This document shows, piece by piece, positions 1 through 64,000 of a stretch of DNA of 64,000 nt (positions are counted from its first letter, which is position 1; each line of letters starts with the position of its first letter). A model generated the notes under the pieces. That model saw only the letters and a program-made list of their open reading frames with translations, was not told where the DNA came from and searched no databases. Location of the stretch: the NCBI GenBank assembly GCA_963708725.1, contig CAVPTL010000008.1, positions 733,697-797,696 on the forward strand, read 5' to 3'. The position numbers were made by a program, and so were the translations under genes. The stretch is from an uncultured Actinomycetes bacterium (GTDB taxonomy: Bacteria; Actinomycetota; Thermoleophilia; Gaiellales; JAICJC01).

Positions 1-490
1 GCGCGTGATGGGGACGGTGCACCGGAAGCCCGAGGTCTTCAGCGATGGCCGAGAGCGCGCGCAGCTGTGGATCTGGGTGCTGCTGTTCGACCTCCCACAG
101 CCGATACAGCTGGGCGGTGTCGATCAGCGTGCGCGGTAGCCGAACGCCGAGCCCGCGCAGGGGCTTTGACAGGAACCCACGCTCGACCCACTCGGCATGC
201 GCGACCACCTCGGCACCGGTGAGAACCTCGGCCAGCGGCGCGAGCGCCTCGGGCGCCGCGGGTGCATCGCGCAAGTCCTGCTCTCGGATGCCGTGAATCA
301 GTATCGATTGCGCCGGCAGCTCGCGCTGCGGGTTGACCAGCCCGTACACCGACGCCCCCGCCACGATCCGGCCCCGCTCGATCGGTATCGCGCCGAACGA
401 GATCACGCGATCGGTACGGGGGTCGAGTCCCGTGGTCTCGATATCGACCGCAACCAGCCGTGCCTCACGCCACGATCCACGGCGTGTCAT
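1..490 (-). CDS. DEDDh 3'-5' exonuclease (DNA polymerase III epsilon-like); 3' end cut by the window edge
   Basis: Manual minus-strand translation from ATG 490..488 gives MTRRGSWREARLVAVDIETTGLDPRTDRVISFGAIPIE..., which contains the DIETTG Exo I motif. The ATG overlaps the upstream gene's stop (487-489) as ATGA. It is absent from the ORF track because no stop lies inside the window. Confidence 0.75.
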   Translation of the reverse strand, partial: MTRRGSWREARLVAVDIETTGLDPRTDRVISFGAIPIERGRIVAGASVYGLVNPQRELPAQSILIHGIREQDLRDAPAAPEALAPLAEVLTGAEVVAHAEWVERGFLSKPLRGLGVRLPRTLIDTAQLYRLWEVEQQHPDPQLRALSAIAEDLGLPVHRPHHA

Positions 491-4463: not shown

Positions 4464-4496
4464 GTGAATAAATGGTGCCTGGCACCATTTATTCAC
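4464..4496. repeat. Palindromic intergenic repeat copy 1 (33 nt, perfect, centre T); putative bidirectional terminator
   Basis: Sequence gtgaataaatggtgccTggcaccatttattcac, between the MFS stop (4447) and the ftsH start. Confidence 0.85.
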
Positions 4497-36203: not shown

Positions 36204-36275
36204 GGCTGGTCCGTTGGGTCTGCCGCTCCGCTCACCACTCGATCCTTGCCACAGACCCAACGGCCTGCGCCTCAG
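36200..36275. repeat. B-type hairpin element B1 (nested inverted repeats around a core shared with 61669-61697)
   Basis: ctgaggc (36200-36206) pairs with gcctcag (36269-36275). ccgttgggtctg (36211-36222) pairs with cagacccaacgg (36252-36263). The core gctccgctcaccactcgatccttgccaca lies at 36225-36253. Confidence 0.7.
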
Positions 36276-47632: not shown

Positions 47633-49459
47633 GTGTCAACTCCCTGCGCGGGGCTCATGTGGCGTACGGCACACGCCGATGGAGTCCTCATGGCGTTGGA
47701 TCCGTCAGGGCTGCCTCCGGCTGGGACCGGAGGGTCGAACAACACTGTCGACGTGCTGCGGCGCGTCGCGGCGACCGCGGCCGTCCACATCTACGAGATG
47801 GAGTACCTCGAGGATGGGCGGTACGTGTGCAACGAGTTCATCGGGGAGGGCCTCGAGAGCCTGCTCGGCCCGCTCCCCGAAGGCCATGACGAGGAGGAGG
47901 CCTGGGAGAACGCCGTGCATCCCGACGATCACGCCGCCTATCTCGCCTTCAACGAGGCCCTCCGCCAGGGCCGTCCCATGGAGCTCGAATACCGGCTGGT
48001 CGGCTTCGACCGCCGCACGCGCTGGGTGTGGGATCGAGCCCGCCCGCGATTTACCCAGGGCCGTCTCCTGGTCGAGGGCATCGTCACCGACGTGACCGAC
48101 CGGCACGAGGCTGGTGAAGCGCTGGCCGACGCTCAGCGAAAGCTCGCCCACCTCGCCTACCACGACCCGCTCACCGATCTGCCGAACCGGCTCAAATTCT
48201 CCGAGCAGCTCGAGCGCACCCTCGCAGAGGCGGAGCGCAACGACGCCGCTGCCGCCGTGCTGTTCGTCGATGTGGATGACTTCAAACTGGTCAACGACAG
48301 CCTCGGCCATGCCGTCGGCGACGAGCTTCTCCGTACGCTGGCAGGACGGCTGCAACAGGCCGTCAGGCAGGGCGACATGGTCGCCCGGCTCGGCGGCGAC
48401 GAGTTCCTGGTGCTGCTCTCGATGCCCGGCGAGAGCGACACCAGCATCGTGCGTTCGGCCGCCGAGGAGACCGCCGCACGGATCCGTGCCATCGTGTCGC
48501 GACCCGCCGAGGCCGGTGGCGTGGAGGTGTTCGTGTCGGCCAGTGTCGGCATTGCCCTGTTCCCGCAGGACGCCACGGTGGGCGAGGAGTTGCTGAAACA
48601 CGCCGACATCGAGATGTACCGAGCCAAGCAGGTTGGCCGTGAGAGCCAGCGAGCCGCCGTTCGCGACTCGGACGAGGCCACCGATCGGCTGGCGGTCGCA
48701 GGCCGCCTGCGTGGGGCGGTCGAACGCGGCGAGATGGTGCTCAACTATCAGCCGATCGTTGCCCTCGATTCCGGAGCGATCATGGGCGTCGAGGCGCTGA
48801 TCCGCTGGAACGATCCCGTGCGCGGCCTGGTGCAGCCGGCCGACTTCATCCCCGTTGCCGAGCGCACCGGCGCGATCGGTGGCATCTCCGACTGGGTGGT
48901 CGAAACCGCCCTGGTACAGGAACGGGCATGGCGAGCCGCTGGAATGGATCTGTTCGTCTCGGTCAACCTGCCGCCGATCCTGTGGCGGCCAAAGGCGATG
49001 CGGCGTGTGATCGACACGATCGAAAGCTACGGACTCGACCCCAGCCGGCTGATGATCGAGATCACCGAGACCGCCGCCACCGCCGATTCGGAAGGTGTCG
49101 AGCCGATGTTGGCCGATCTCCAGCGGCGAGGCCTTGGTATCGCGATCGACGATTTTGGCACCGGCCACTCGTCGCTCGGGCGGCTCAACCACATTTCAGT
49201 GACGACGATCAAGATCGATCGCTCGTTCGTGACCGGGCTGCCGGCGGATCCAAGCTCGGTGGCGGTCGTCGACAGCGTCATCAAACTCTCTCGGAACCTC
49301 GGTCTCACACCGCTGGCAGAGGGAGTCGAAACCGAGGGCCAGCGCCGATTCCTCTCCGCGCATGGGTGTGCACTGGGCCAGGGCTTTCTGTTCAGCCCTG
49401 CGGTGCCCGCCGATCAGATCGAACTGCTGGTACGGCGTCAGCGCCCGATGGCCGCCTGA
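47633..49459 (+). CDS. PAS-GGDEF-EAL signalling protein
   Basis: A PAS block (ELEYRLVGFDRRTRWVWDR), GGDEF (RLGGDEFLVLL), and EAL (EALIRW, DDFGTGHSSL). The start is uncertain (47633 or 47690). Confidence 0.88.
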   Translation: MSTPCAGLMWRTAHADGVLMALDPSGLPPAGTGGSNNTVDVLRRVAATAAVHIYEMEYLEDGRYVCNEFIGEGLESLLGPLPEGHDEEEAWENAVHPDDHAAYLAFNEALRQGRPMELEYRLVGFDRRTRWVWDRARPRFTQGRLLVEGIVTDVTDRHEAGEALADAQRKLAHLAYHDPLTDLPNRLKFSEQLERTLAEAERNDAAAAVLFVDVDDFKLVNDSLGHAVGDELLRTLAGRLQQAVRQGDMVARLGGDEFLVLLSMPGESDTSIVRSAAEETAARIRAIVSRPAEAGGVEVFVSASVGIALFPQDATVGEELLKHADIEMYRAKQVGRESQRAAVRDSDEATDRLAVAGRLRGAVERGEMVLNYQPIVALDSGAIMGVEALIRWNDPVRGLVQPADFIPVAERTGAIGGISDWVVETALVQERAWRAAGMDLFVSVNLPPILWRPKAMRRVIDTIESYGLDPSRLMIEITETAATADSEGVEPMLADLQRRGLGIAIDDFGTGHSSLGRLNHISVTTIKIDRSFVTGLPADPSSVAVVDSVIKLSRNLGLTPLAEGVETEGQRRFLSAHGCALGQGFLFSPAVPADQIELLVRRQRPMAA

Positions 49460-52129: not shown

Positions 52130-54664
52130 ATGCGACTGGGGAAATGCGTTCCCACCATCGCTCCAAAGCGCTGTTCGAGCTCGCCCGCGCGCTGCAAATC
52201 CGTGCGCGACCCGGCCGCCGTCGCTGCCGTGTTCGGCGCTCGTGCCCATCAGTTTTCGAACGGCCGGATGTCGCTCTGGCATTGGGATTGTGAACGCGGC
52301 GTATTGCGCGAGCGGGGAAATCAGTACGAGACCGAGCGCGTGGTCGATCAGTTTCCCAACCGATCGCGGGCGCTCGAGTCTGGCCGCCCGCTGCGGTCGG
52401 ACGGGCTGCTCCTGCTGCCGCTCTCAAGTGGCGGACAGGTGAAGGGCCTGATCGAGGTCGAAGGGGCTTCGGACGGCGAGATCGCCTCGGGCGGTATGCA
52501 GCCCTGGCACGCGCTTGCAAGCGTGGTTGCGGCCTCGCTCGAGAACGCCGAGCAGTTTGAGCGGCTCCAGCAGACGGAATCGCGGTTTCGCTCGCTGGTC
52601 GAGCAGACGCCCGCGGTCACCTACCTCGACACCGCGATCACCGGTGAGCCGGTGTACGTCAGCCCGCAGCTGGAAGAGCTGTTTTCGGTGCCGGTGGAGG
52701 AGTGGCTCGAGGGCAACGACGGCTGGGGAAAGCGAGTCCACCCGGATGATCGCGAGGCGACCACGACCGGATACCAGCAGGCTGTCGCGAGCGGCGATCC
52801 CTACCGATGTGAATACCGGCTGATCGGCACCGACGGTGTGGAGCGGTGGCTGCGCGACGAGGCGGTTACCGTCGTCGACGATCGCGGCGAGCCGTCGCTC
52901 GTGCAGGGCGTGATCTACGACGTGACCGAGCGAAAGCTTGCTGAGCAACGCTATCTCGAGGCCGAGGAGCGCTATCGGATCCTGGTCGAGCAGCTGCCGC
53001 TTGCGATCTATATCGATGCGCTCGACGAGAAGGCGACGTCGATCTACAACAGCCCCCAGAACGCCGAGATCAGCGGGTACTCCCACGAGCAGTGGCAGTC
53101 CGATCCCGACCTGTTCGAAAAGACGCTCCACCCCGACGATCGAGCCTGGGTGATGGAGGGCTTCGAACGCGCCCGCGTCTCGGGAGAACCGTTCGTCGCC
53201 GACTATCGGATCGTGCGGCCCGACGGGACGATCGTGTGGCTCCACGACGAGTCGGTGGTGGTCGCAGGGCATGACGGCGAGCCCGGCTACCGGCAGGGGT
53301 ATCTGCTCGATATCTCTCGCAGCAAGGAGGCCGAGGAGCGGCTTTCGCACCTGGCCTACCACGACGCCCTCACCAACCTTCCCAACCGCGCGATGTTCCG
53401 CGAGCACCTCGAGATCGCACTGGCCCGCGCCGAGCGATCCGGACGCGGGGTCGCCGTGCTGTTCGTCGACCTCGACGACTTCAAGCTCGTCAACGACAGC
53501 TTCGGGCATGGCGCCGGGGATGAGCTCTTGATCGAGGTGGCCGATCGCCTGCGAACCGCCACCCGCGACACCGACGTGGTCGCACGGCAGGGCGGCGACG
53601 AGTTCCTGATCCTCGTGGCCGACCTCACCGTCGGTGGCGCCGACGAGGAGTTCGACATCGCCGAGCTGGCGCTCTCGGTCGCCGAGCAGCTGCGGCTTGC
53701 GCTGGCCCAGCCCTTCCACCTGGCCGACACTGAGATCTACTGCTCGGGATCGGTCGGGATCAGCCTGTTCCCGGTGGACGCCGCCGACGGTGAGAGCCTT
53801 TTGAAGCACGCCGACATCGCGATGTACCGCGCGAAGGAGCGCGGGCGCGACGGCCACCACCTGTACCAGCGCGAAGGCGGCGACGCGATGGCGCGGTTGT
53901 CGATGGCCGGACGCCTGCGACGCGCGATCGACCGCGAGCAGTTCGTGCTCTACTACCAGCCGCTGGTCGACCTCACGACCAACGACGTGGTCGGCGTCGA
54001 GGCGCTGATCAGGTGGGCCGACGGTGAGCGCGGCATGGTCATGCCCAACTCGTTCATCCCGCTGGCCGAGCGCACCGGCATGATCGCCCCGATCTCGGAA
54101 TGGGTCATCAACGAGGCCTGCCGTCAGGGCGCAGTGTGGCGCAACATGGGGCTCGACCTGTACGTCTCGGTCAACCTCCCGCCCGTGTTCTGGCAGCCGA
54201 CCGCGATGCGCACGGTGCTCGAGACGATCGAGTCGTTCGGACTCTCGCCTGACCGCATGATGGTGGAGCTGACGGAGTCGGCGGTGATGCAAAACCATCG
54301 CGCTTCTGAGCCGATCATCGCCGAGCTGCACGAGCGCGGCCTGCGGCTGGCGATCGACGATTTCGGCACCGGGCACTCGTCTCTCGGCCGTCTGCATCAG
54401 ATGGCGGTGACCACGCTCAAGATCGACCGCTCGTTCATCTTCGACCTGCCGCACGATCACAGCGCCGATGTGCTGGTGTCGACCATGATCGCGCTCGCCG
54501 ACGGGTTGGGATTGCAGGCGCTCGCCGAGGGCATCGAGACCGACGCCCAGCGGCGCTGGCTGGTCGATCACGGCTGCCCGCTGGGGCAGGGATTCTTCTT
54601 CTCACGCCCCGTACCGGCCGACCAGATCGCCGGCCTCTACCACCGTTTCAGCGACGCAGCCTGA
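52130..54664 (+). CDS. GAF-PAS-PAS-GGDEF-EAL signalling protein; the N-terminus is probably in the neighbouring frame
   Basis: GGDEF (RQGGDEFLILV) and EAL (EALIRW, DDFGTGHSSL). A plausible N-terminus MRSHHRSKALFELARALQIRA starts at ATG 52144 in the -1 frame and joins DPAAVAAVFGARAH... if one base near 52207 is removed. Confidence 0.85.
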   Translation: MRLGKCVPTIAPKRCSSSPARCKSVRDPAAVAAVFGARAHQFSNGRMSLWHWDCERGVLRERGNQYETERVVDQFPNRSRALESGRPLRSDGLLLLPLSSGGQVKGLIEVEGASDGEIASGGMQPWHALASVVAASLENAEQFERLQQTESRFRSLVEQTPAVTYLDTAITGEPVYVSPQLEELFSVPVEEWLEGNDGWGKRVHPDDREATTTGYQQAVASGDPYRCEYRLIGTDGVERWLRDEAVTVVDDRGEPSLVQGVIYDVTERKLAEQRYLEAEERYRILVEQLPLAIYIDALDEKATSIYNSPQNAEISGYSHEQWQSDPDLFEKTLHPDDRAWVMEGFERARVSGEPFVADYRIVRPDGTIVWLHDESVVVAGHDGEPGYRQGYLLDISRSKEAEERLSHLAYHDALTNLPNRAMFREHLEIALARAERSGRGVAVLFVDLDDFKLVNDSFGHGAGDELLIEVADRLRTATRDTDVVARQGGDEFLILVADLTVGGADEEFDIAELALSVAEQLRLALAQPFHLADTEIYCSGSVGISLFPVDAADGESLLKHADIAMYRAKERGRDGHHLYQREGGDAMARLSMAGRLRRAIDREQFVLYYQPLVDLTTNDVVGVEALIRWADGERGMVMPNSFIPLAERTGMIAPISEWVINEACRQGAVWRNMGLDLYVSVNLPPVFWQPTAMRTVLETIESFGLSPDRMMVELTESAVMQNHRASEPIIAELHERGLRLAIDDFGTGHSSLGRLHQMAVTTLKIDRSFIFDLPHDHSADVLVSTMIALADGLGLQALAEGIETDAQRRWLVDHGCPLGQGFFFSRPVPADQIAGLYHRFSDAA

Positions 54665-56434
54665 TCACACCGGCAGTGCGGCGTCGCGCTCGACCAAAGC
54701 GGCGTAGCGGCCGCCCGCGGCCACCAGATCGGTATGCGTGCCGCGCTCCACGATCCGGCCCTTGTCCAGCACCAGGATCAGATCGGCCTCACGTACGGTC
54801 GAGAGCCGGTGGGCGATGGTGATGGTGGTACGACCACGGCTGAGGGTCTCGAGTGCGTCCTGGACTGCTCGCTCGGTCTGGACATCGAGAGCGCTGGTGG
54901 CCTCGTCCAACACCAGCACCGGCGGGTCGCGCAGGATCGCCCGAGTGATCGCAAGTCGCTGTTTCTCGCCGCCCGAGAAGCGGTAGCCGCGCTCCCCGAC
55001 GATCGTGTCGTAGCCATTTTCGAGCGACACCATGTGGTCGTGGATGCGGGCGGCCTTGGCGGCGGCCTCGATCTCCTCCTGGGTGGCACCGGGCTTGGCG
55101 AACTCGAGGTTCTCGCGCACCGTGCCGTGGAACAGGTAGGTCTCCTGAGAGACCACGCCCACGACGCTTCGCAGCGAGTCGAAGGTCAGGTCACGGATGT
55201 CGGTGCCATCGATCCGGATCGAGCCCTCGGTGACGTCGTAGAGCCGCGCGGTCAGGTACCCGAGCGTGGTCTTACCTGATCCGGTCTCTCCCACCACCGC
55301 GACGGAGGCGCCCGGTTCGGCCACGAACGAGATGTTCTGGAGCGTCGGGTGGCCCTCCTCGTAGGCGAAGGACACGTCCTCGAACACGACCTCGCCCGTC
55401 ACCCGCTCACGGTCGAGGGCGATTGCGTCGGGCTTCTCGTCGATGTCGATCGGGAGGTCGAGGTACTCGAACACGCGGTCAAACAGCGCAAGTGACGTCT
55501 GCACGTCGGTCTGGACGCTCAGGAGCGACGACACCGGAAAGAACAGCCTGGTCTGGAGGGTCGTGAAGGCCACCAGCGTGCCGATCGAGATCGCGCTCGA
55601 GCCGCTGGCGAGCAGGTGGCCGGCGATGCCGTAGACGATCGCGGGCATGACCGCGAAGGTGGTCTGGATCGAGGCCATCGCCCAACGGCCGGCCATCCGC
55701 TGCCGTAGCTCGAGGTCGGCCAGGCGGGACGACTCGGTGCCGAACCGCTCGGTCAGCTCACCGGTGCGCCCCATCGTCTTTGCCAGCAGCACTCCCGACA
55801 CCGACAGCGACTCTTCGACGAGTGCGGAGATGTCGGCCAGTGAGCTCTGGGTTGTGGCGGCCAGTGCGCGGCGCAATCGGCCGACCCGGCGGGTGATCAG
55901 CACGAACACCGGCAGCAGCGCGAACGCGGCCGCCGCGAGCTCCCAGTTCAGCAGGATCATCGCCACCGATGTGGCGATCACTGTGGTCAGGTTCGAGACG
56001 ATCGACGTGGCGGTGGTCGTGACCACGCTCTGCACGCCGCCGATGTCGTTGGAGATGCGCGACTGCACCTCGCCGGTGCGGGTGCGCGTGAAAAACGCGA
56101 GTGAGAGTCGCTGGAGGTGGCGATAGACCGCGGTTCGCAGGTCGTGCATCACCTGCTGGCCGACGAGATTTGACTGCCACGTCTGGGCGACACCGATCGC
56201 GCCGGTCACGATCGGGATCACGATCATGCCGGCCACGAGCAGGTTCAGCTCGGTGACGTTCAGGTTCTTGCCCTGGCTGAGGACGTTGTTCAGCAGATCC
56301 TGGAGCAGGAAGGCGGGGATGATCCCGAGCGCGGCGGCCAGGATGATCAGCGCGAACAGCCCCAGCAGCCGTTTCTTGTACGGAGAGAACAGCCGCAGGA
56401 TGCGGCGGCCGTTCTTTGGGGTGCGATTACTCAC
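54665..56434 (-). CDS. ABC exporter, fused permease/ATPase (MsbA/MdlB-like)
   Basis: Six N-terminal TM segments, Walker A GETGSGKTT, signature FSGGEKQRLAI, Walker B VLVLDEATSALD. GTG start at 56434. Confidence 0.9.
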   Translation of the reverse strand: MSNRTPKNGRRILRLFSPYKKRLLGLFALIILAAALGIIPAFLLQDLLNNVLSQGKNLNVTELNLLVAGMIVIPIVTGAIGVAQTWQSNLVGQQVMHDLRTAVYRHLQRLSLAFFTRTRTGEVQSRISNDIGGVQSVVTTTATSIVSNLTTVIATSVAMILLNWELAAAAFALLPVFVLITRRVGRLRRALAATTQSSLADISALVEESLSVSGVLLAKTMGRTGELTERFGTESSRLADLELRQRMAGRWAMASIQTTFAVMPAIVYGIAGHLLASGSSAISIGTLVAFTTLQTRLFFPVSSLLSVQTDVQTSLALFDRVFEYLDLPIDIDEKPDAIALDRERVTGEVVFEDVSFAYEEGHPTLQNISFVAEPGASVAVVGETGSGKTTLGYLTARLYDVTEGSIRIDGTDIRDLTFDSLRSVVGVVSQETYLFHGTVRENLEFAKPGATQEEIEAAAKAARIHDHMVSLENGYDTIVGERGYRFSGGEKQRLAITRAILRDPPVLVLDEATSALDVQTERAVQDALETLSRGRTTITIAHRLSTVREADLILVLDKGRIVERGTHTDLVAAGGRYAALVERDAALPV

Positions 56435-56497
56435 AAAGATTTAAACGCGGTCGAGGGCGAGATTACTCCCATGTCGCAAAGTGCGGGAATTTCGTGG

Positions 56498-56526
56498 TTG
56501 CACGGGCTGGGCGGCTGCCCTACTGT
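56498..56526 (+). promoter_or_regulatory. Candidate promoter TTGCAC-N17-TACTGT in front of structured RNA copy 1
   Basis: TTGCAC lies at 56498-56503 and TACTGT at 56521-56526. Copy 2 has TTGCAG-N17-TAACTT at the homologous position, although the spacer sequence differs. Confidence 0.5.
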
Positions 56527-56533
56527 CACTTCT

Positions 56534-56641
56534 GCGCCGCCCAAGGTAACCAAGTAGGACGAAACCGGGCGGAGGGATTGTAGAGGCGACTCGAACGTTC
56601 CTTCGGCCGGCGGACGAAAGGTCAACCAGGGCGGCGAATCC
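56534..56641 (+). ncRNA. Unclassified conserved structured RNA, copy 1 (strand not settled)
   Basis: Closing helix 56535-56542 pairs with 56629-56636. A second helix pairs 56545-56547 with 56625-56627. A hairpin spans 56600-56621 with the invariant loop GCCGGCGGA. Identity with 61451-61558 is about 80 percent, with two compensatory pair changes. Confidence 0.5.
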
Positions 56642-56649
56642 TGTTAAAC

Positions 56650-56680
56650 GTGAATACCAGTGCCAGGCACCGTTATTCAC
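56650..56680. repeat. Palindromic intergenic repeat copy 6 (31 nt, 2 arm mismatches, centre A)
   Basis: Sequence gtgaataccagtgccAggcaccgttattcac, 9 nt after structured RNA copy 1. Confidence 0.8.
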
Positions 56681-56725: not shown

Positions 56726-56887
56726 ATGGACACCTCAGACATGCTGATCGTCGTGCTCGCCGTTGTGTCGGCTCTGGTCTGCGTGATGTGCTGCGCCGCG
56801 CGATTCGGATTGAGCAGTCAGGCAATCATCGCCGAGCGCGAGCAGCTCGACACGGATCACCGCGACTCCGAGGACATCGCCGCTTAG
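56726..56887 (+). CDS. Possible 53-aa single-TM peptide
   Basis: An in-frame ATG about 11 nt after GGGAGAAG gives MDTSDMLIVVLAVVSALVCVMCCAARFG.... Its TAG overlaps the TAA of the convergent cgl-like gene (TTAG). There is no homology support. Confidence 0.3.
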   Translation: MDTSDMLIVVLAVVSALVCVMCCAARFGLSSQAIIAEREQLDTDHRDSEDIAA

Positions 56888-59144: not shown

Positions 59145-60544
59145 CGAGCGCCGGGCTCCCGTTGGGCGGCCAGATACTCGAGCAGGTCAGAGCGGGTCAG
59201 CACGCCCGCGGGCCGTCCCCCGTCGGCCACGACGACCGCGGGGCTGCCGCCGGTGAGGTCGGCGAACACGCGGTCGATCGATTCGCCGGCGTCGACAACG
59301 TGCAGCGGCGGCTGCATCGCCTCGGCCACCTCATGCTCGAGCGCGGTGGGGTCTTTGAACACGCGGTCGAGCAGTCCGCGCTCGTGCAGCGAGCCCACCA
59401 CGTCGTCGAGCTCCGCGGGGTCTCGACGCACCACCGGGAGCTGCGAGATCGAGTAGCGCTGCATCAGCGCGATCGCGTCGCCCACCCGACGGTGGGTTTC
59501 GATTACCACCAGCTCGGGGACGCCGGTTTGGCTGCTTCGGTGGTACTGCAGCACCTCCCCCACCGTCGGCGTGGCGGTGCTGCCCCGTTCGAGCAGGCCA
59601 TGTTCCAGCATGTAGTTGTCGTCGTAGAACTTGCTCAGGTATGCACGGCCGCTGTCGGGGATGAGCGTGACCACGGTGGCGTCGGGGCCAAGGCCGCGTG
59701 CCGTCTCGACGGCCGCGAACACCGCGGTGCCGCCCGATCCGCCAACCAGCAGCCCCTCTTCTCGGGCCATCCTTCTGGCCATCACGAACGAGTCGCGGTC
59801 AGAGACGGTGATGAAGCGGTCGATCAGTGAGAGATTCATGGTCGCCGGGTAGAAGTCCTCGCCAATGCCCTCGACCAGATAGGGGTGGACATCGTCGGGC
59901 TGCGAGTAGATCGAGCCCTCGGGGTCTGCGCCGACGACCACCAGGTCGGGCTTTTGCTCCTTCAGGTAGCGCGAGATGCCCGACACGGTGCCACCCGTCC
60001 CCAGCGCGATCACCAGGGCGTCGATCTCGCCGCCAGTCTGCTCCCAGATCTCGGGGCCGGTGGTGTCGTAGTGGGCCTGCGGATTGGCCATGTTGGCGTA
60101 TTGATTGGGCTTGAAACCGCCCGGGATCTCCTCGGCGAGCCGGTCAGACACCGAGTAGTAACTCTCGGGTGACTCAGGCTCGACCGCGGTCGGGCAGATC
60201 ACGACCTCGGCACCGTAGGCCCGCAGCAGCGAGATCTTCTCGCGGCTCATCTTGTCGGGCATCACGAAGATGCAGCGATACCCCTTGATCGCAGCGGCGA
60301 TGGCCAGGCCGACGCCGGTGTTGCCCGAGGTGGGCTCGACGATCGTGCCACCCGGCTTGAGGCTGCCGTCGCGCTCGGCGGCCTCGATCATCCTGATCCC
60401 GATCCGATCCTTGACCGAGCCGCCGGGGTTGAGGTACTCGAGCTTGGCGACGACCGTCGCCGGCACGTCTCGGGTGACCGCTTGCAGCCGCACCAGCGGG
60501 GTGCCCCCGATCAGCTCGACGACGGTGGGGTACGTGCGGGTCAC
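59141..60544 (-). CDS. cbs: Cystathionine beta-synthase (PLP domain plus C-terminal CBS pair)
   Basis: GTG 60544 overlaps the upstream stop (GTGA). The PLP lysine block is NPGGSVKDRIG. The C-terminus has tandem CBS-like segments. Confidence 0.85.
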   Translation of the reverse strand: MTRTYPTVVELIGGTPLVRLQAVTRDVPATVVAKLEYLNPGGSVKDRIGIRMIEAAERDGSLKPGGTIVEPTSGNTGVGLAIAAAIKGYRCIFVMPDKMSREKISLLRAYGAEVVICPTAVEPESPESYYSVSDRLAEEIPGGFKPNQYANMANPQAHYDTTGPEIWEQTGGEIDALVIALGTGGTVSGISRYLKEQKPDLVVVGADPEGSIYSQPDDVHPYLVEGIGEDFYPATMNLSLIDRFITVSDRDSFVMARRMAREEGLLVGGSGGTAVFAAVETARGLGPDATVVTLIPDSGRAYLSKFYDDNYMLEHGLLERGSTATPTVGEVLQYHRSSQTGVPELVVIETHRRVGDAIALMQRYSISQLPVVRRDPAELDDVVGSLHERGLLDRVFKDPTALEHEVAEAMQPPLHVVDAGESIDRVFADLTGGSPAVVVADGGRPAGVLTRSDLLEYLAAQREPGAR

Positions 60545-61368
60545 TCCGGCCAGACGTGGGAGTGGAAGAAGCCTTTCCAGGCCGACCACCAGTCATCGCC
60601 ACGCGAGATCAGAAGGCGCGAGTCGCGGATCTCGACGTCGGGCCGGTAGCGGTACTGCTCGGCATGGTCGGAGCTGGCAAGCTCGACCGCGATTTCGCAG
60701 GGGTGCCCAGGGTCGTACGGCGCGACCGCGGTGAGGTCGGCGAGTGCCTTGCGGGCGCCATCCTCGACCATTGTGCGCGCGACGGTGGGGGACTTGTGGC
60801 GAGCGCTGTACCGACCCAGGCTCTGCTTGACCGCCACGGTCGAGAGGCCCTGGCCGAGCAGCTCGGTCGATTCGCGGCATACGGCTTCGTCACCGGTGAC
60901 CAGCAGCACCGGGCAGCCCCACGTGCCGCAGAGCGCGGCGTTGATACCGACCTCGCCAACCTCCACCCCGTTGAAGCTGACCGAGCGCCAATGGGTGCTC
61001 GAAACTGTGTGGTTGAGGCCGCCGTCGGGAGTCCCGGCGCGGGCGTGCTGGCCGATGAAGAGCGCGGCATCGCACCCCTGTTCGAGAAACTCGGTGTAGT
61101 CGGTCCACTCACGCTGAACGACGAACTCGCAGCGGGGATCGAGCTCGTCGGGAATCAGGGAGTTGAACGTCCAGCCGTTACCGGCGCCGTGGCAGTCCAT
61201 CACCACGACCTCGGTGGCCCCGGCGGAGAAGCTTCCGCGCACCGCGGCGTTGATCTCCTCGGTGTAGAGCTTGCGGGCCTCGAAGTACTGCGGCGTACCA
61301 CCGTCGACCTGATCCCAGGTGGTGATTCCGGCCACGCCTTCCATGTCACTGATGATGAAGACCCGCAT
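60541..61368 (-). CDS. Peptidase M55 (DppA-type D-aminopeptidase) family
   Basis: MRVFIISDMEGVAGI... is the typical M55 N-terminus. 275 aa. Confidence 0.8.
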   Translation of the reverse strand: MRVFIISDMEGVAGITTWDQVDGGTPQYFEARKLYTEEINAAVRGSFSAGATEVVVMDCHGAGNGWTFNSLIPDELDPRCEFVVQREWTDYTEFLEQGCDAALFIGQHARAGTPDGGLNHTVSSTHWRSVSFNGVEVGEVGINAALCGTWGCPVLLVTGDEAVCRESTELLGQGLSTVAVKQSLGRYSARHKSPTVARTMVEDGARKALADLTAVAPYDPGHPCEIAVELASSDHAEQYRYRPDVEIRDSRLLISRGDDWWSAWKGFFHSHVWPE

Positions 61369-61414
61369 GCGCCGCGCACTCTATCGAAGTCCGCAAACTG
61401 CGCGAAATTCGTGG

Positions 61415-61443
61415 TTGCAGACCGGGCCTACATCCCTTAACTT
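61415..61443 (+). promoter_or_regulatory. Candidate promoter TTGCAG-N17-TAACTT in front of structured RNA copy 2
   Basis: TTGCAG lies at 61415-61420 and TAACTT at 61438-61443, homologous in position to 56498-56526. Confidence 0.5.
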
Positions 61444-61450
61444 GACTCCT

Positions 61451-61558
61451 GCGCCGCTGAGGGCAGCCAAGTAGGTTGAAACCGGGCGGAGGGATCGTAG
61501 GGGCGACTCGAAAATCCTTTCGGCCGGCGGACGAAAGGCAAGCCGGAGCGGCGAATCC
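61451..61558 (+). ncRNA. Unclassified conserved structured RNA, copy 2 (strand not settled)
   Basis: Closing helix 61452-61458 pairs with 61547-61553. A second helix pairs 61462-61464 with 61542-61544. A hairpin spans 61516-61538 with the loop GCCGGCGGA. Confidence 0.5.
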
Positions 61559-61565
61559 TTTTAAT

Positions 61566-61746
61566 ACGGGGGGCGCTTGGGTGGGGTTCTGTTGCGGCTG
61601 GTTCGCGCCGGCTGTGGCTGCGTCCCACGCGACGTGCGGTGCTCAACGTGGCCGCTGGCCACGCCTGCGCTCCGCTCGCCGCTCGATCCTTGCCACAACC
61701 ACCGCGCCCTGCGCCTCACGACGAACCCCACCCAAGCGCCCCCCGT
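61566..61746. repeat. B-type hairpin element B2: 181 nt bounded by a perfect 24-bp inverted repeat
   Basis: acggggggcgcttgggtggggttc (61566-61589) pairs with gaaccccacccaagcgccccccgt (61723-61746). An internal hairpin gtggcc-gct-ggccac is present. The core at 61669-61697 is shared with 36225-36253. Confidence 0.75.
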
Positions 61747-61749
61747 GTG

Positions 61750-61782
61750 GTGAATAAATGGTGCCAGGCACCTTTTATTCAT
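61750..61782. repeat. Palindromic intergenic repeat copy 7 (33 nt, 2 arm mismatches, centre A)
   Basis: Sequence gtgaataaatggtgccAggcaccttttattcat. Confidence 0.8.
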
Positions 61783-61793
61783 GGGGCGCTTTT

Positions 61794-61822
61794 GTGACGG
61801 AATCGTTGCATTCACCTATACT
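61794..61822 (+). promoter_or_regulatory. Candidate promoter GTGACG-N17-TATACT, 9 nt before ATG 61832 (leaderless or near-leaderless)
   Basis: Hexamers at 61794-61799 and 61817-61822. Confidence 0.45.
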
Positions 61823-61831
61823 CGGCTCGCG

Positions 61832-62938
61832 ATGAAGATGCGAGCTGCGGTGTTGGAGGAGTTTGGGGCGCCGTTGGTGGTGCAGGAGATCGATCTTGCC
61901 GATCCCGCCCCCGGCGAGGTGCTCGTGCGTTTGGTCGCCTGCGGCGTCTGCCACACAGATCTCTACACCGCCTCTGGAGCCGATCCGTCGGGGTACGCCC
62001 CCACTGTGCTGGGCCACGAGGGTGCGGGCGTGGTCGAGGCGGTCGGCGAGGGAGTCTCGCTGGTTGCGGTTGGCGATCATGTGGTCACCCTGTTTTCGCC
62101 CCAGTGCGGCAAGTGCATCCACTGCCTGAGCCCCAAGACCAACCTGTGCCTGGCGATCCGCGAGCAGCAGAACCTGGGGTACCTGCCCAACGGCACCGCT
62201 CGGCTGTCACGCGACGGCGAGCCGATCCGGCACTTCATGGGCACCTCGACATTTGCGGAGTACACCGTGATGCCCGAGATCGCTCTGGCCAAGATCTCGC
62301 CAGAGGCACCGCTCGAGGGGGCTTGCCTGTTTGCCTGCGGGCTCTCGACCGGACTGGGCGCGGCAATCAACACCGCCAAGGTCGAGCCGGGATCGACGTG
62401 CGTGGTGTTCGGCGCCGGCATGGTCGGGCTCGGCGCCGTCGCGGGCTGCCGGTTACAGGGCGCCGAGCGGATCGTGTGCGTGGACATGTCGCAGGAGCGG
62501 CTTGAACTGGCCCGTGGCCAGGGGGCGACCGAGTTGATGATCGGCGGCGACGACGCCGTCGAGCGGATCGTCGAGATGACCGGCGGCTTCGGGGCGGACT
62601 ACACCTTCGAGGCCACCGGCAACGTGCGCGTCATGCGCCAGGCGGTCGAGTCGGCGCGGATGGGCTGGGGCCTCGCCACCGTCGCCGGCGTCGCGGGCCG
62701 GGGAGAGGTGCTTGAGGTGATCCCCCGTTTTCTGATCACCGGTCGGCGAATCGCCGGCTCGTCGTTCGGCGGGGTCAAGGGGCGAGAAGGCGTGCCGAAG
62801 CTGATTCAGCGCTGGCTGGACGGCGAGATCGACGTCGACCCGTTCCTCTCGCACAGGATCACGCTCGACGAGGTCAATCGCGGATTTGAGCTGATGGAAG
62901 CCCAGGACGGCATCCGCAGCGTCATCGAGTTCGGCTAG
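61832..62938 (+). CDS. Zinc-dependent alcohol dehydrogenase, class III-like (thiol-dependent formaldehyde dehydrogenase family)
   Basis: Start placed at MKMRAAVLEEFG. Motifs CGVCHTD, GHEGAGVVEAVG, structural-zinc Cys cluster CGKCIHCLSPKTNLC, and GAGMVGLG. Confidence 0.85.
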   Translation: MKMRAAVLEEFGAPLVVQEIDLADPAPGEVLVRLVACGVCHTDLYTASGADPSGYAPTVLGHEGAGVVEAVGEGVSLVAVGDHVVTLFSPQCGKCIHCLSPKTNLCLAIREQQNLGYLPNGTARLSRDGEPIRHFMGTSTFAEYTVMPEIALAKISPEAPLEGACLFACGLSTGLGAAINTAKVEPGSTCVVFGAGMVGLGAVAGCRLQGAERIVCVDMSQERLELARGQGATELMIGGDDAVERIVEMTGGFGADYTFEATGNVRVMRQAVESARMGWGLATVAGVAGRGEVLEVIPRFLITGRRIAGSSFGGVKGREGVPKLIQRWLDGEIDVDPFLSHRITLDEVNRGFELMEAQDGIRSVIEFG

Positions 62939-62950
62939 AGCCGCCGACCG

Positions 62951-63694
62951 CTACGAACTGCGTCGGAAGACCCGGCGCCATCCGCCGCGGCCGTCGTCTT
63001 CGATCGCTGCGACACCCACCGCTCCGCGAAGGTCGTTCACGTCGAGGGGAGTGTCGGCCTCGGTGGCCCGCCGGCCGCCGTTGAGGATGTGCTGGATCCG
63101 CTGGCGGTTGATGCCGTCGACCAGGATGAAGCGGGCTCCGACGATCGTGCGCCCGGGCTGGGGGCTCTCACGGAGCGAAGCGATCCGCACCTCCGCATCG
63201 ACCTCCTCGGAGAAGAACCGGCCGTGGAACATCAGCTCGTCGCCGACCCGAAGCACGCGGTTGGTGGCGAACCCGACGCCGGTGAGCGAGAGGTCGGTCA
63301 TGGTGCCGTCGACGCGGTCGCCGTCAACGACGTCACGACAGCTGAGCGCGGTCAGCCAGGCGATGCCGCCGGCCGGCTGGCGCACCGTCGTTCGCCTGGT
63401 CGTGTCGAGGCCGACGCGTTGGGCCCGCAGTTCGACCCGCGCCAGCGCTTTGGAGTGAAACTCGGCGGATTCGACGCGCAGTGCAACCATCCACGGGCGC
63501 TCGTCCTCGTCGATCACACGGCCGATCAGCGCCATCCCCGTGGAGACGCGCAGACGCGGTGCAAGCGCGACGGCCCGGGTGCGGTCGACCGCGGTCACGT
63601 TGAGCTTTATCGGCGCCCCGCCCTCGACCTCCAACTCGACCTCAGGGGCCGAGAAAAGCCGTGCAATGGCCAGGGTTGGAGTGAGCCGGGGCAT
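62951..63694 (-). CDS. PilZ-domain protein (c-di-GMP receptor candidate)
   Basis: The RRTTVRQ ... DLSLTGVG pattern fits RxxxR / D-x-S-x-x-G. The start is moved to ATG 63694 because the ORF-track start at 63802 would overlap the divergent gene. Confidence 0.6.
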   Translation of the reverse strand: MPRLTPTLAIARLFSAPEVELEVEGGAPIKLNVTAVDRTRAVALAPRLRVSTGMALIGRVIDEDERPWMVALRVESAEFHSKALARVELRAQRVGLDTTRRTTVRQPAGGIAWLTALSCRDVVDGDRVDGTMTDLSLTGVGFATNRVLRVGDELMFHGRFFSEEVDAEVRIASLRESPQPGRTIVGARFILVDGINRQRIQHILNGGRRATEADTPLDVNDLRGAVGVAAIEDDGRGGWRRVFRRSS

Positions 63695-63795
63695 TGCGAT
63701 GTTATCGGCACATTCCGACCGCAACTGTACTATCGGGTCAACCGGTCGATGACCGGGCCGTGCGGCGGGGGTCGCCGCAGTGGTCTTACCAAAAT

Positions 63796-64000
63796 ATGGC
63801 AACGATCGACATCACATTCCGCGCGATCGAGGAGCTCGAGCCCGGGGTCAAGTGGCAGGGGCTGTTCGACGCCCTGTGGCCGAGCTACCGCCGCTGGTTC
63901 CTCCAGGCCGGGGACGCGGCCCGCCCCGCCTATGCCGATTCGGTGCGGATGCTCCGCCGGCACATGCCCGAGCTGGTTGACACCTACGACCGGCTGGTCG
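63796..64000 (+). CDS. Peptidase C45 / acyl-CoA:6-APA acyltransferase-like protein; 5' part only (window edge)
   Basis: Manual translation from ATG 63796 gives MATIDITFRAIEELEPGVKWQGLFDALWPSYRRWFLQAGDAARPAYADSVRMLRRHMPELVDTYDRLV, open to the window end. The family call is from memory of C45 N-termini. Confidence 0.5.
   Translation, partial: MATIDITFRAIEELEPGVKWQGLFDALWPSYRRWFLQAGDAARPAYADSVRMLRRHMPELVDTYDRLV

Follow-up and report, generated by a model that had tools for sequence, protein, structure and literature searches.

On which strand does a conserved intergenic cassette act, and as what kind of element? The question is raised by a 64-kb stretch of DNA from an uncultured Gaiellales bacterium (hereafter, the window), in which a 175-nt cassette occurs twice: copy 1 at 56475-56647 and copy 2 at 61392-61564 (79.4% identity, E 9e-37, blastn). 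Both copies lie immediately upstream of genes on the minus strand. A preliminary description of the locus weighed a cis-acting 5' leader of those genes against a stand-alone small RNA (sRNA) transcribed divergently from the plus strand, and preferred the latter. Our analysis points the same way: the cassette is probably an autonomous plus-strand gene for a structured, stand-alone sRNA of about 110 nt. It defines a structured RNA family of Gaiellales that had not been curated before.

The Gaiellales, soil actinobacteria of high abundance, have almost no cultured members. We know of no regulatory RNA described in this group, and a literature search for riboswitches in Gaiellales returned none.

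Structure and coding strand of the RNA

RNAalifold places all copies of the RNA in a single rod-like fold. Pair statistics were taken over 20 distinct sequences and 32 pairs, that is, 640 pair cells. Read on the plus strand, 99.7% of these cells are canonical, and compensatory double changes are found at 9 of the 32 pairs. None of 500 column shuffles reached the observed values, and sliding the partners by 1-3 columns left 24-48% of cells paired. Five variants fold singly into the same rod (z -2.75 to -5.4). Within the window, single-sequence folds reach -53.1 kcal/mol (z -4.46) for the copy 1 RNA, with predicted ends at 56533-56647, and -49.9 kcal/mol (z -2.75) for the copy 2 RNA of about 110-115 nt, with predicted ends at 61450-61564.

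The rod runs from a closing helix, P1, to a capped apical helix, P4 (coordinates are those of copy 2, plus strand). P1 has 7 bp (61452-61458/61547-61553) and is lengthened with covariation in copy 2 of L053, where L-numbers label the retrieved contigs and loci. After a small internal loop comes P2 (3+3 bp; 61462-61468/61537-61544), in which GGC/GCC becomes GGU/ACC in window copy 1. P2 is followed by an invariant internal loop, AAGUAG opposite CGAAAG (61469-61474/61532-61537), and, after a short irregular segment, by P3 (4+9 bp; 61482-61495/61514-61527). A second invariant internal loop, YGUAG opposite CGAAAG (61496-61499/61510-61513), leads into P4 (61500-61509), whose 3 bp are A-U or G-C and whose tetraloop is always of the GNRA type: GCGA, as in copy 2, or GUGA or GAGA. 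In most copies the 3' tail, AAUCYUUUU, directly follows the 3' strand of P1; in copy 2 it reads AAUCCUUUUAA (61554-61564). We infer from their sequence pattern that the two invariant loops may form sarcin-ricin (S-turn)-like modules.

P3 deserves comment, since its strands had been proposed as a possible alternative pairing. In the window they read GGAGGGAU/AUCCUUUC; L015 swaps them to CGGACGAGCU/AGCUCGUUCG, and the L058 copies alter two pairs on both sides. The pairing is thus the main helix, supported by covariation. A strand-symmetric hairpin, CCUUUCG/CGAAAGG (columns 69-75 with 85-91), was rejected as a switch, with no compensatory changes and with its central pair broken in 15 of the 20 sequences. 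As a separate observation, two copy-2-type RNAs (L053:3336-3453 and L100:396-513) share an A34->G change together with C81->G. The pair is not a Watson-Crick covariation and may reflect common ancestry or a tertiary contact.

Three measures bear on the strand. First, G-U pairs occupy 78 of the 640 cells, and every sequence has one at G42-U73; on the minus strand these become A-C mismatches, and canonical pairing falls to 87.7%. Second, a covariance model built from 17 sequences scores the copies at 119-145 bits on the plus strand versus 15-27 bits on the minus strand (copy 1, 139.5 versus 20.2 bits; copy 2, 138.8 bits on the plus strand). Third, the folding energies of the window copies are -50 and -53 kcal/mol on the plus strand versus -37 and -40 kcal/mol on the minus strand, and the plus-strand folds alone beat shuffled controls (minus-strand z, 0.08 and -0.88). 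G-U pairs, model scores, and folding energies together settle the strand as plus: on this evidence, the RNA is read from the plus strand.

Promoter and upstream dyad

The region upstream of the RNA carries a second signature. Aligned by RNA start, 20 of 21 copies hold TTGCAn-N17-TAnnnT in the same register, and the remaining copy is shifted by 1 nt, which bears out the identically spaced plus-strand promoter of the preliminary description. In copy 1 the promoter spans 56498-56526 (TTGCAC 56498-56503, N17, TACTGT 56521-56526); in copy 2 it spans 61415-61443 (-35 TTGCAG 61415-61420, 17-nt spacer, -10 TAACTT 61438-61443). The spacers of the two window copies are unrelated, and 8 nt separate the end of the -10 from the first paired base of the terminal helix. 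Across copies, mean pairwise identity is 0.77 in the -35, 0.71 in the -10, 0.70 in the dyad that lies upstream, 0.47 in the spacer, and 0.29 far upstream. Conserved hexamers around a diverged spacer are the footprint expected of a working plus-strand promoter, and we read them as such. In the RNA itself, identity is 0.88 versus 0.47 in the spacer; selection thus acts on almost every nucleotide.

The dyad reads CGCAAAGTGCG in copy 1 (56475-56485), followed by GAATTTC (56487-56493), and CGCAAACTGCG in copy 2 (61392-61402), followed by GAAATTC (61404-61410), an A/T-rich block directly upstream of the -35. The copy 2 dyad, a candidate regulator site, has its center about 53 nt before the point where the RNA is predicted to start. 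Of 21 copies, 19 share the dyad core, CGC-N5-GCG, and 13 the complete CGCAnnnTGCG; exact matches to CGCAAANTGCG in the window are the two cassette dyads only. Two assignments of the upstream region were tried and set aside. For a promoter of the extracytoplasmic function (ECF) sigma type, inspection of the sequence puts the upstream GGAAC 24 nt from the nearest GTT, which is too long. The core recalls a ClgR-type operator, and the flanking degenerate positions do not fit.

The preliminary description had suggested that this block serves as a shared divergent promoter/operator. The dyad does stand at a fixed distance from the RNA promoter. Its spacing to the M55 peptidase -10 on the other side is not constant, at 8 nt in the window and 20 nt in L100, and it is kept in the L023/L051 clade, which has no divergent gene. 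Because of this fixed distance on one side, variable distance on the other, and retention without a divergent gene, the dyad belongs first of all to the RNA gene; the shared-module idea is borne out only in part.

Minus-strand neighbors and the leader model

The genes behind the cassettes were annotated by Pfam and NCBIfam. Copy 2 is backed by an M55 peptidase (60541-61368), followed on the minus strand by cystathionine beta-synthase (cbs), an AlkZ/YcaQ-like glycosylase (alkZ), and a cystathionine gamma-lyase/synthase (cgl) ending at 56884; copy 1 is backed by an MsbA-like ABC exporter (54665-56434). The longest cbs open reading frame (ORF) opens with a GTG (60589) within the M55 gene, so that the two share 49 nt. 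The true cbs start is probably 60544, because the product called on identical contigs has 467 aa and begins 4 nt inside the M55 gene.

Could the cassette be the 5' leader of the M55-cbs-alkZ-cgl operon and of the exporter? Position is what speaks for it: the copy 2 dyad stands 23 nt from the M55 ATG (61366-61368), and the copy 1 dyad 40 nt from the exporter GTG (56432-56434). Set against this, the minus-strand reading turns 12% of pair cells into A-C mismatches, one invariant pair among them, and brings the low model scores and shuffle-like folds given above. Each gene has a -10-like hexamer on the minus strand, where the preliminary description had placed it: TAGAGT (61378-61383), 8 nt past the copy 2 dyad and 9 nt upstream of the M55 start codon, and TAATCT (56460-56465), 9 nt past the copy 1 dyad on the exporter side. 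In the window, L046, L053, and L100, a TAnnnT precedes the M55 ATG by 8-11 nt, which argues for a near-leaderless mRNA that excludes the cassette. A minus-strand transcript would moreover have to traverse a palindromic repeat and, at copy 2, a 180-nt hairpin (both described below). Finally, the L008/L016/L023/L045/L051 clade has a co-oriented NifU-like gene upstream of the RNA and a convergent amino-acid permease downstream; since the NifU-like gene is co-oriented, there is no minus-strand gene there to lead. We therefore give the minus-strand leader next to no chance, and the evidence indicates that the cassette is not a leader of the neighboring minus-strand genes. The paired cassettes, dyads, promoters, and close-set genes of the preliminary description are all present; it is the cis-leader alternative that fails, on pairing, model scores, and the context of the L023/L051 clade, and the divergent plus-strand sRNA that gains from the G-U content, the model scores, the promoter footprint, and the contexts that lack a minus-strand gene.

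Distribution and evolution of the family

Homologues come from Gaiellales-type metagenome-assembled genomes (MAGs) and soil metagenomes, with no other sources so far. A 19-mer scan of metagenome contigs gave 37 matches, 10 of them true homologues, and a two-block pattern scan over one genome per species gave 15 matched stretches, 11 of them true loci, in MAGs labeled as uncultured Actinomycetes (Microflora Danica), Gaiellales, and, once, Acidimicrobiales. The covariance model added further divergent copies: L053 3336-3453, L047 7418-7535, three in L058, and one in L100. In the window as a whole it matches copy 1 and copy 2 only. Every copy occupies 118 nt in the model, without indels, and genomes hold one to three copies.

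The gene contexts of the RNA number at least six, and its conservation is independent of its neighbors. Window copy 1 and L053 copy 1 differ at 8 nt, window copy 1 and window copy 2 at 18 nt. Because window copy 1 is nearer to its L053 counterpart than to its own paralogue, the duplication is older than those species, and the fold, retained in each paralogue, shows that selection acts on both. The M55 protein has its best named relatives in Gaiellales, and the window's own protein also occurs on ENA metagenome contigs. M55 homologues of about 70% identity that are not beside cbs (L059, L060, L061, L101, L102) lack an RNA copy.

Searches for a known identity came back empty. Rfam 15 gave no match in the whole window at the gathering score, and at E values up to 10 no Rfam hit overlapped the RNA on either strand in copy 1, copy 2, or the L015 variant. 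ARAGORN found no tRNA or tmRNA gene in the window. 6S RNA was considered and rejected: the length is about 110 nt versus about 150-200 nt, the central loop is predicted to be structured and not an open bubble, and Rfam gives no match. A blastn search of a plasmid collection found no cassette. A 15-mer scan of the IMG/VR viral contigs returned 38 loci, which we attribute to chance because the covariance model matched none of them.

Repeats adjoining the cassette

Each cassette in the window is followed by repeats, and these raise the prospect that the whole block is a DNA-level element. After copy 1, at 56650-56680, lies the terminator-like palindrome that the preliminary description had noted. 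It is present as described but not specific to the cassette: the repeat, GTGAATAA(C/AT)GGTGCC(A/T)GGCACC(G/AT)TTATTCAC (31-33 nt), occurs at 7 sites in the 64 kb versus 0.19 expected (core positions 4474, 7283, 19586, 21516, 36299, 56659, and 61760), generally between genes. The site after copy 2, GTGAATAAATGGTGCCAGGCACCTTTTATTCAT (61750-61782), resembles a bidirectional terminator, and related GGTGCCAGGCAC units occur in L047 and L054. The palindrome is a genome-wide repeat of the repetitive extragenic palindromic (REP)-like or bidirectional-terminator kind, separate from the cassette.

A long hairpin of about 180 nt (61566-61746; -120 kcal/mol), likewise distinct from the cassette, stands between the copy 2 RNA and its palindrome; its ends form a perfect inverted repeat of 22 nt. 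The conspecific contig L005 lacks most of it, and relatives occur at window positions 36224-36274, L050:1-119, and L044:2175-2282; a partial copy of the hairpin elsewhere also adjoins a palindrome. The hairpin may be an insertion resembling a miniature inverted-repeat transposable element (MITE), or the L005 assembly may have collapsed.

On a DNA-level account, the cassette would act purely as DNA, either as a bidirectional promoter/operator block or as a mobile repeat, and the part of it that is transcribed would be functionless as RNA. The copy number of one to three per genome (with one copy inverted in L058), the conserved dyad and hexamers, and the adjoining REP-like and MITE-like repeats are compatible with it. 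Such an account does not explain substitutions that compensate to keep helices, G-U pairs specific to one strand, or a GNRA loop kept in three versions. The copies also sit at orthologous positions and cluster partly by position, terminal inverted repeats and target duplications are absent, and none was found in the plasmid and viral collections. We regard this account as very improbable.

Genes downstream of the RNA

If the cassette is a plus-strand RNA gene, what lies in its path? Copy 2 is followed in seven loci by a class III alcohol dehydrogenase (Pfam, NCBIfam). In the window this gene appears leaderless, with a -10 of TATACT (61817-61822) and an ATG at 61832 (feature 61817-61834, plus strand), and the arrangement CTAYACT, 8-9 nt, ATG is conserved in L046, L048, L049, L053, and L058, all lineages checked. 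Copy 1 is followed by an ORF for a 53-aa small membrane protein (56726-56887, plus strand) whose stop overlaps the cgl stop. The ORF has a GGAGAAG ribosome-binding site and the motif AARFGLSxQAIIAE; it is conserved with synonymous changes in L043, L044, and L048, so that four close genomes have it after copy 1, and a more distant homologue in L039 lies 430 nt from the RNA. Copy 1 always faces the 3' end of the cbs/alkZ/cgl string, an orientation seen in five or six lineages.

Other contexts differ. In L010, L047/L058, and L050 a convergent gene for an Na/H exchanger extends up to or into the RNA 3' end. In L015 a response regulator is co-oriented downstream. In L100, at a contig end, a copy-2-type RNA is followed by a MerR-family regulator (1-336, minus strand) with its own TATAGT -10 and a leaderless GTG, in place of the dehydrogenase. 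L047 (7418-7535, minus strand) and L058 (5877-5994, plus strand) hold a third copy, inverted and one base from that genome's copy 2, whose RNA is probably co-transcribed as a sense leader of the M55-cbs operon. Most copies are followed by strong hairpins. A leader peptide was rejected: no start codon or ORF is common to the copies, and a UUG frame in copy 2 is absent from copy 1.

These arrangements allow a plus-strand rival in which the RNA is a riboswitch-like attenuator. Ligand-dependent closure of P1 before the U tail would decide read-through into the small membrane ORF, the class III alcohol dehydrogenase, or, in L047/L058, the M55-cbs operon; at copy 1, read-through would run antisense into the 3' end of the cbs-cgl operon. 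The conserved internal loops of the rod and the direct abutment of P1 on the U run fit this idea, as do the co-oriented genes (dehydrogenase in seven loci, M55 in L047/L058, response regulator in L015, MerR in L100, small ORF after copy 1) and the constant aim of copy 1 at the cbs/alkZ/cgl string. Against the attenuator, a gene that converges directly on the RNA leaves at least three contexts with no cis target, the dehydrogenase keeps its own conserved -10 and leaderless start, and strong hairpins or REP palindromes stand between the RNA and the following genes. Antisense read-through is doubtful because terminator-like hairpins and whole genes intervene. The sole candidate alternative pairing lacks covariation, and a conserved regulator site with a strongly conserved promoter is more typical of sRNA genes. 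In L058 the element stands at both operon ends and points inward, so one ligand would switch sense and antisense transcription in the same way. We judge the attenuator, the main rival, unlikely.

A bolder version would make the RNA a new sensor class, binding a metabolite or a protein and gating sense and antisense transcription at both ends of the cbs-cgl operon through closure of P1 against the U tail. We hold this to be slightly less probable still. If true, actinobacteria would have a counterpart to the riboswitch/antisense control by which clostridia govern methionine-to-cysteine conversion.

Proposed gene model and mode of action

We return to the stand-alone sRNA gene. Transcription would start 6-8 nt after the sigma-A-type promoter TTGCAn-N17-TAnnnT, at a predicted 61450-61451 in copy 2 and 56533-56534 in copy 1; with a start so placed, the first nucleotides already fall within P1. 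The RNA would most likely end at the U-rich tail AAUCYUUUU after the 3' strand of P1, and the downstream hairpins (in this genome, REP-like palindromes) may back up termination. The CGCAAAnTGCG dyad about 53 nt upstream is the probable site of a regulator that controls RNA synthesis. Since the M55-cbs-alkZ-cgl operon and the ABC exporter both start back to back with the cassette, they too could respond to this regulator.

As for what the RNA does, almost every nucleotide is conserved and no accessible seed is evident; for these reasons we venture a trans-acting role, in which the RNA would bind a protein or other macromolecule as a folded particle and would not work as a seed-pairing sRNA. This is a committed guess, held with much less confidence than the gene model.

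Several observations weigh against the proposal. The conserved 53-aa ORF after copy 1 has no promoter of its own that we could find, and the third copy of L047/L058, in sense orientation, precedes the M55 ATG by 18 nt, with no distinct -10 recognizable there. L050 and L010 have a poor U tail, and L058 copy 3 a short one. The dyad is absent from L058 copy 1 and displaced by 8 nt in L039, and no regulator gene is consistently adjacent: the window has a MarR gene 15 kb off, L015 its response regulator, and L100 its MerR gene. The transcript ends are predictions, and both the S-turn assignment and the protein-binding idea were read from the sequence. A duplex scan of the loops and tail against 42 start regions of the window gave only generic matches of the pyrimidine tail to Shine-Dalgarno-like sequences, and nothing specific.

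Biological significance

An RNA family with covariation and promoter support would offer a first handle on RNA-based regulation in Gaiellales. The rod, which bears two S-turn-like loops below a GNRA cap, points to a macromolecular partner, and its neighbors (the cbs-cgl operon, the class III alcohol dehydrogenase, and the NifU-like gene) hint at a role in thiol/sulfur metabolism, a link that we draw from gene context. For annotation, the implication is that intergenic regions here hold a gene on the strand opposite the flanking coding genes.

The wider neighborhood of the region has a feature of its own. Flanking it are genes for two PAS-GGDEF-EAL proteins and one PilZ-domain protein (47633-49459, 52130-54664, and 62951-63802), and the L023 clade has a further GGDEF-EAL gene close to the RNA (L023:3629-5800), which suggests a local concentration of cyclic di-GMP signaling genes.

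Comparison with known systems

A close precedent in gene arrangement is the ubiG-mccBA operon of Clostridium acetobutylicum, which serves methionine-to-cysteine conversion and is controlled by an S-box riboswitch-controlled antisense RNA (PMC2566862; survey, PMC9943018). As in that operon, a structured RNA with its own promoter lies downstream of, and convergent with, an operon of the cystathionine beta-synthase/gamma-lyase type, and a second element lies at the 5' end. The Gaiellales RNA differs in being neither S-box nor T-box, its 5' copy normally points away from the operon, and terminator-like palindromes, a small ORF, or whole genes stand between copy 1 and cgl.

In shape, the RNA recalls known rods. 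The NMT1/xanthine, nadA/NAD+-I, and nhaA-I motifs are rod-shaped riboswitch candidates with conserved internal loops. The Gaiellales RNA is likewise a single irregular hairpin closed by P1, with conservation concentrated in the internal loops; unlike those motifs, it has no Rfam match, no consistent co-oriented gene, and no supported expression platform, and it faces convergent genes.

For the loops themselves, the model is the sarcin-ricin loop of 23S rRNA, an S-turn/loop E motif capped by GNRA. Although the bulged G is a C at the lower motif in four Gaiellales copies, an invariant GUA opposite GAA with Watson-Crick flanks occurs twice, the apical one three bp below the GNRA loop; the likeness is one of sequence pattern only.

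Stand-alone sRNA genes provide the last comparison. In RyhB, controlled by Fur, and OxyS, controlled by OxyR, the promoter and the regulator site are the best-conserved flanking feature. The Gaiellales RNA departs from this type in that nearly all of it is conserved and paired, and no seed or target was found. It resembles such genes in its promoter at a fixed distance, its upstream dyad, a short predicted transcript ending at a stem and U run, its paralogous copies, and a conservation that is independent of the flanking genes.

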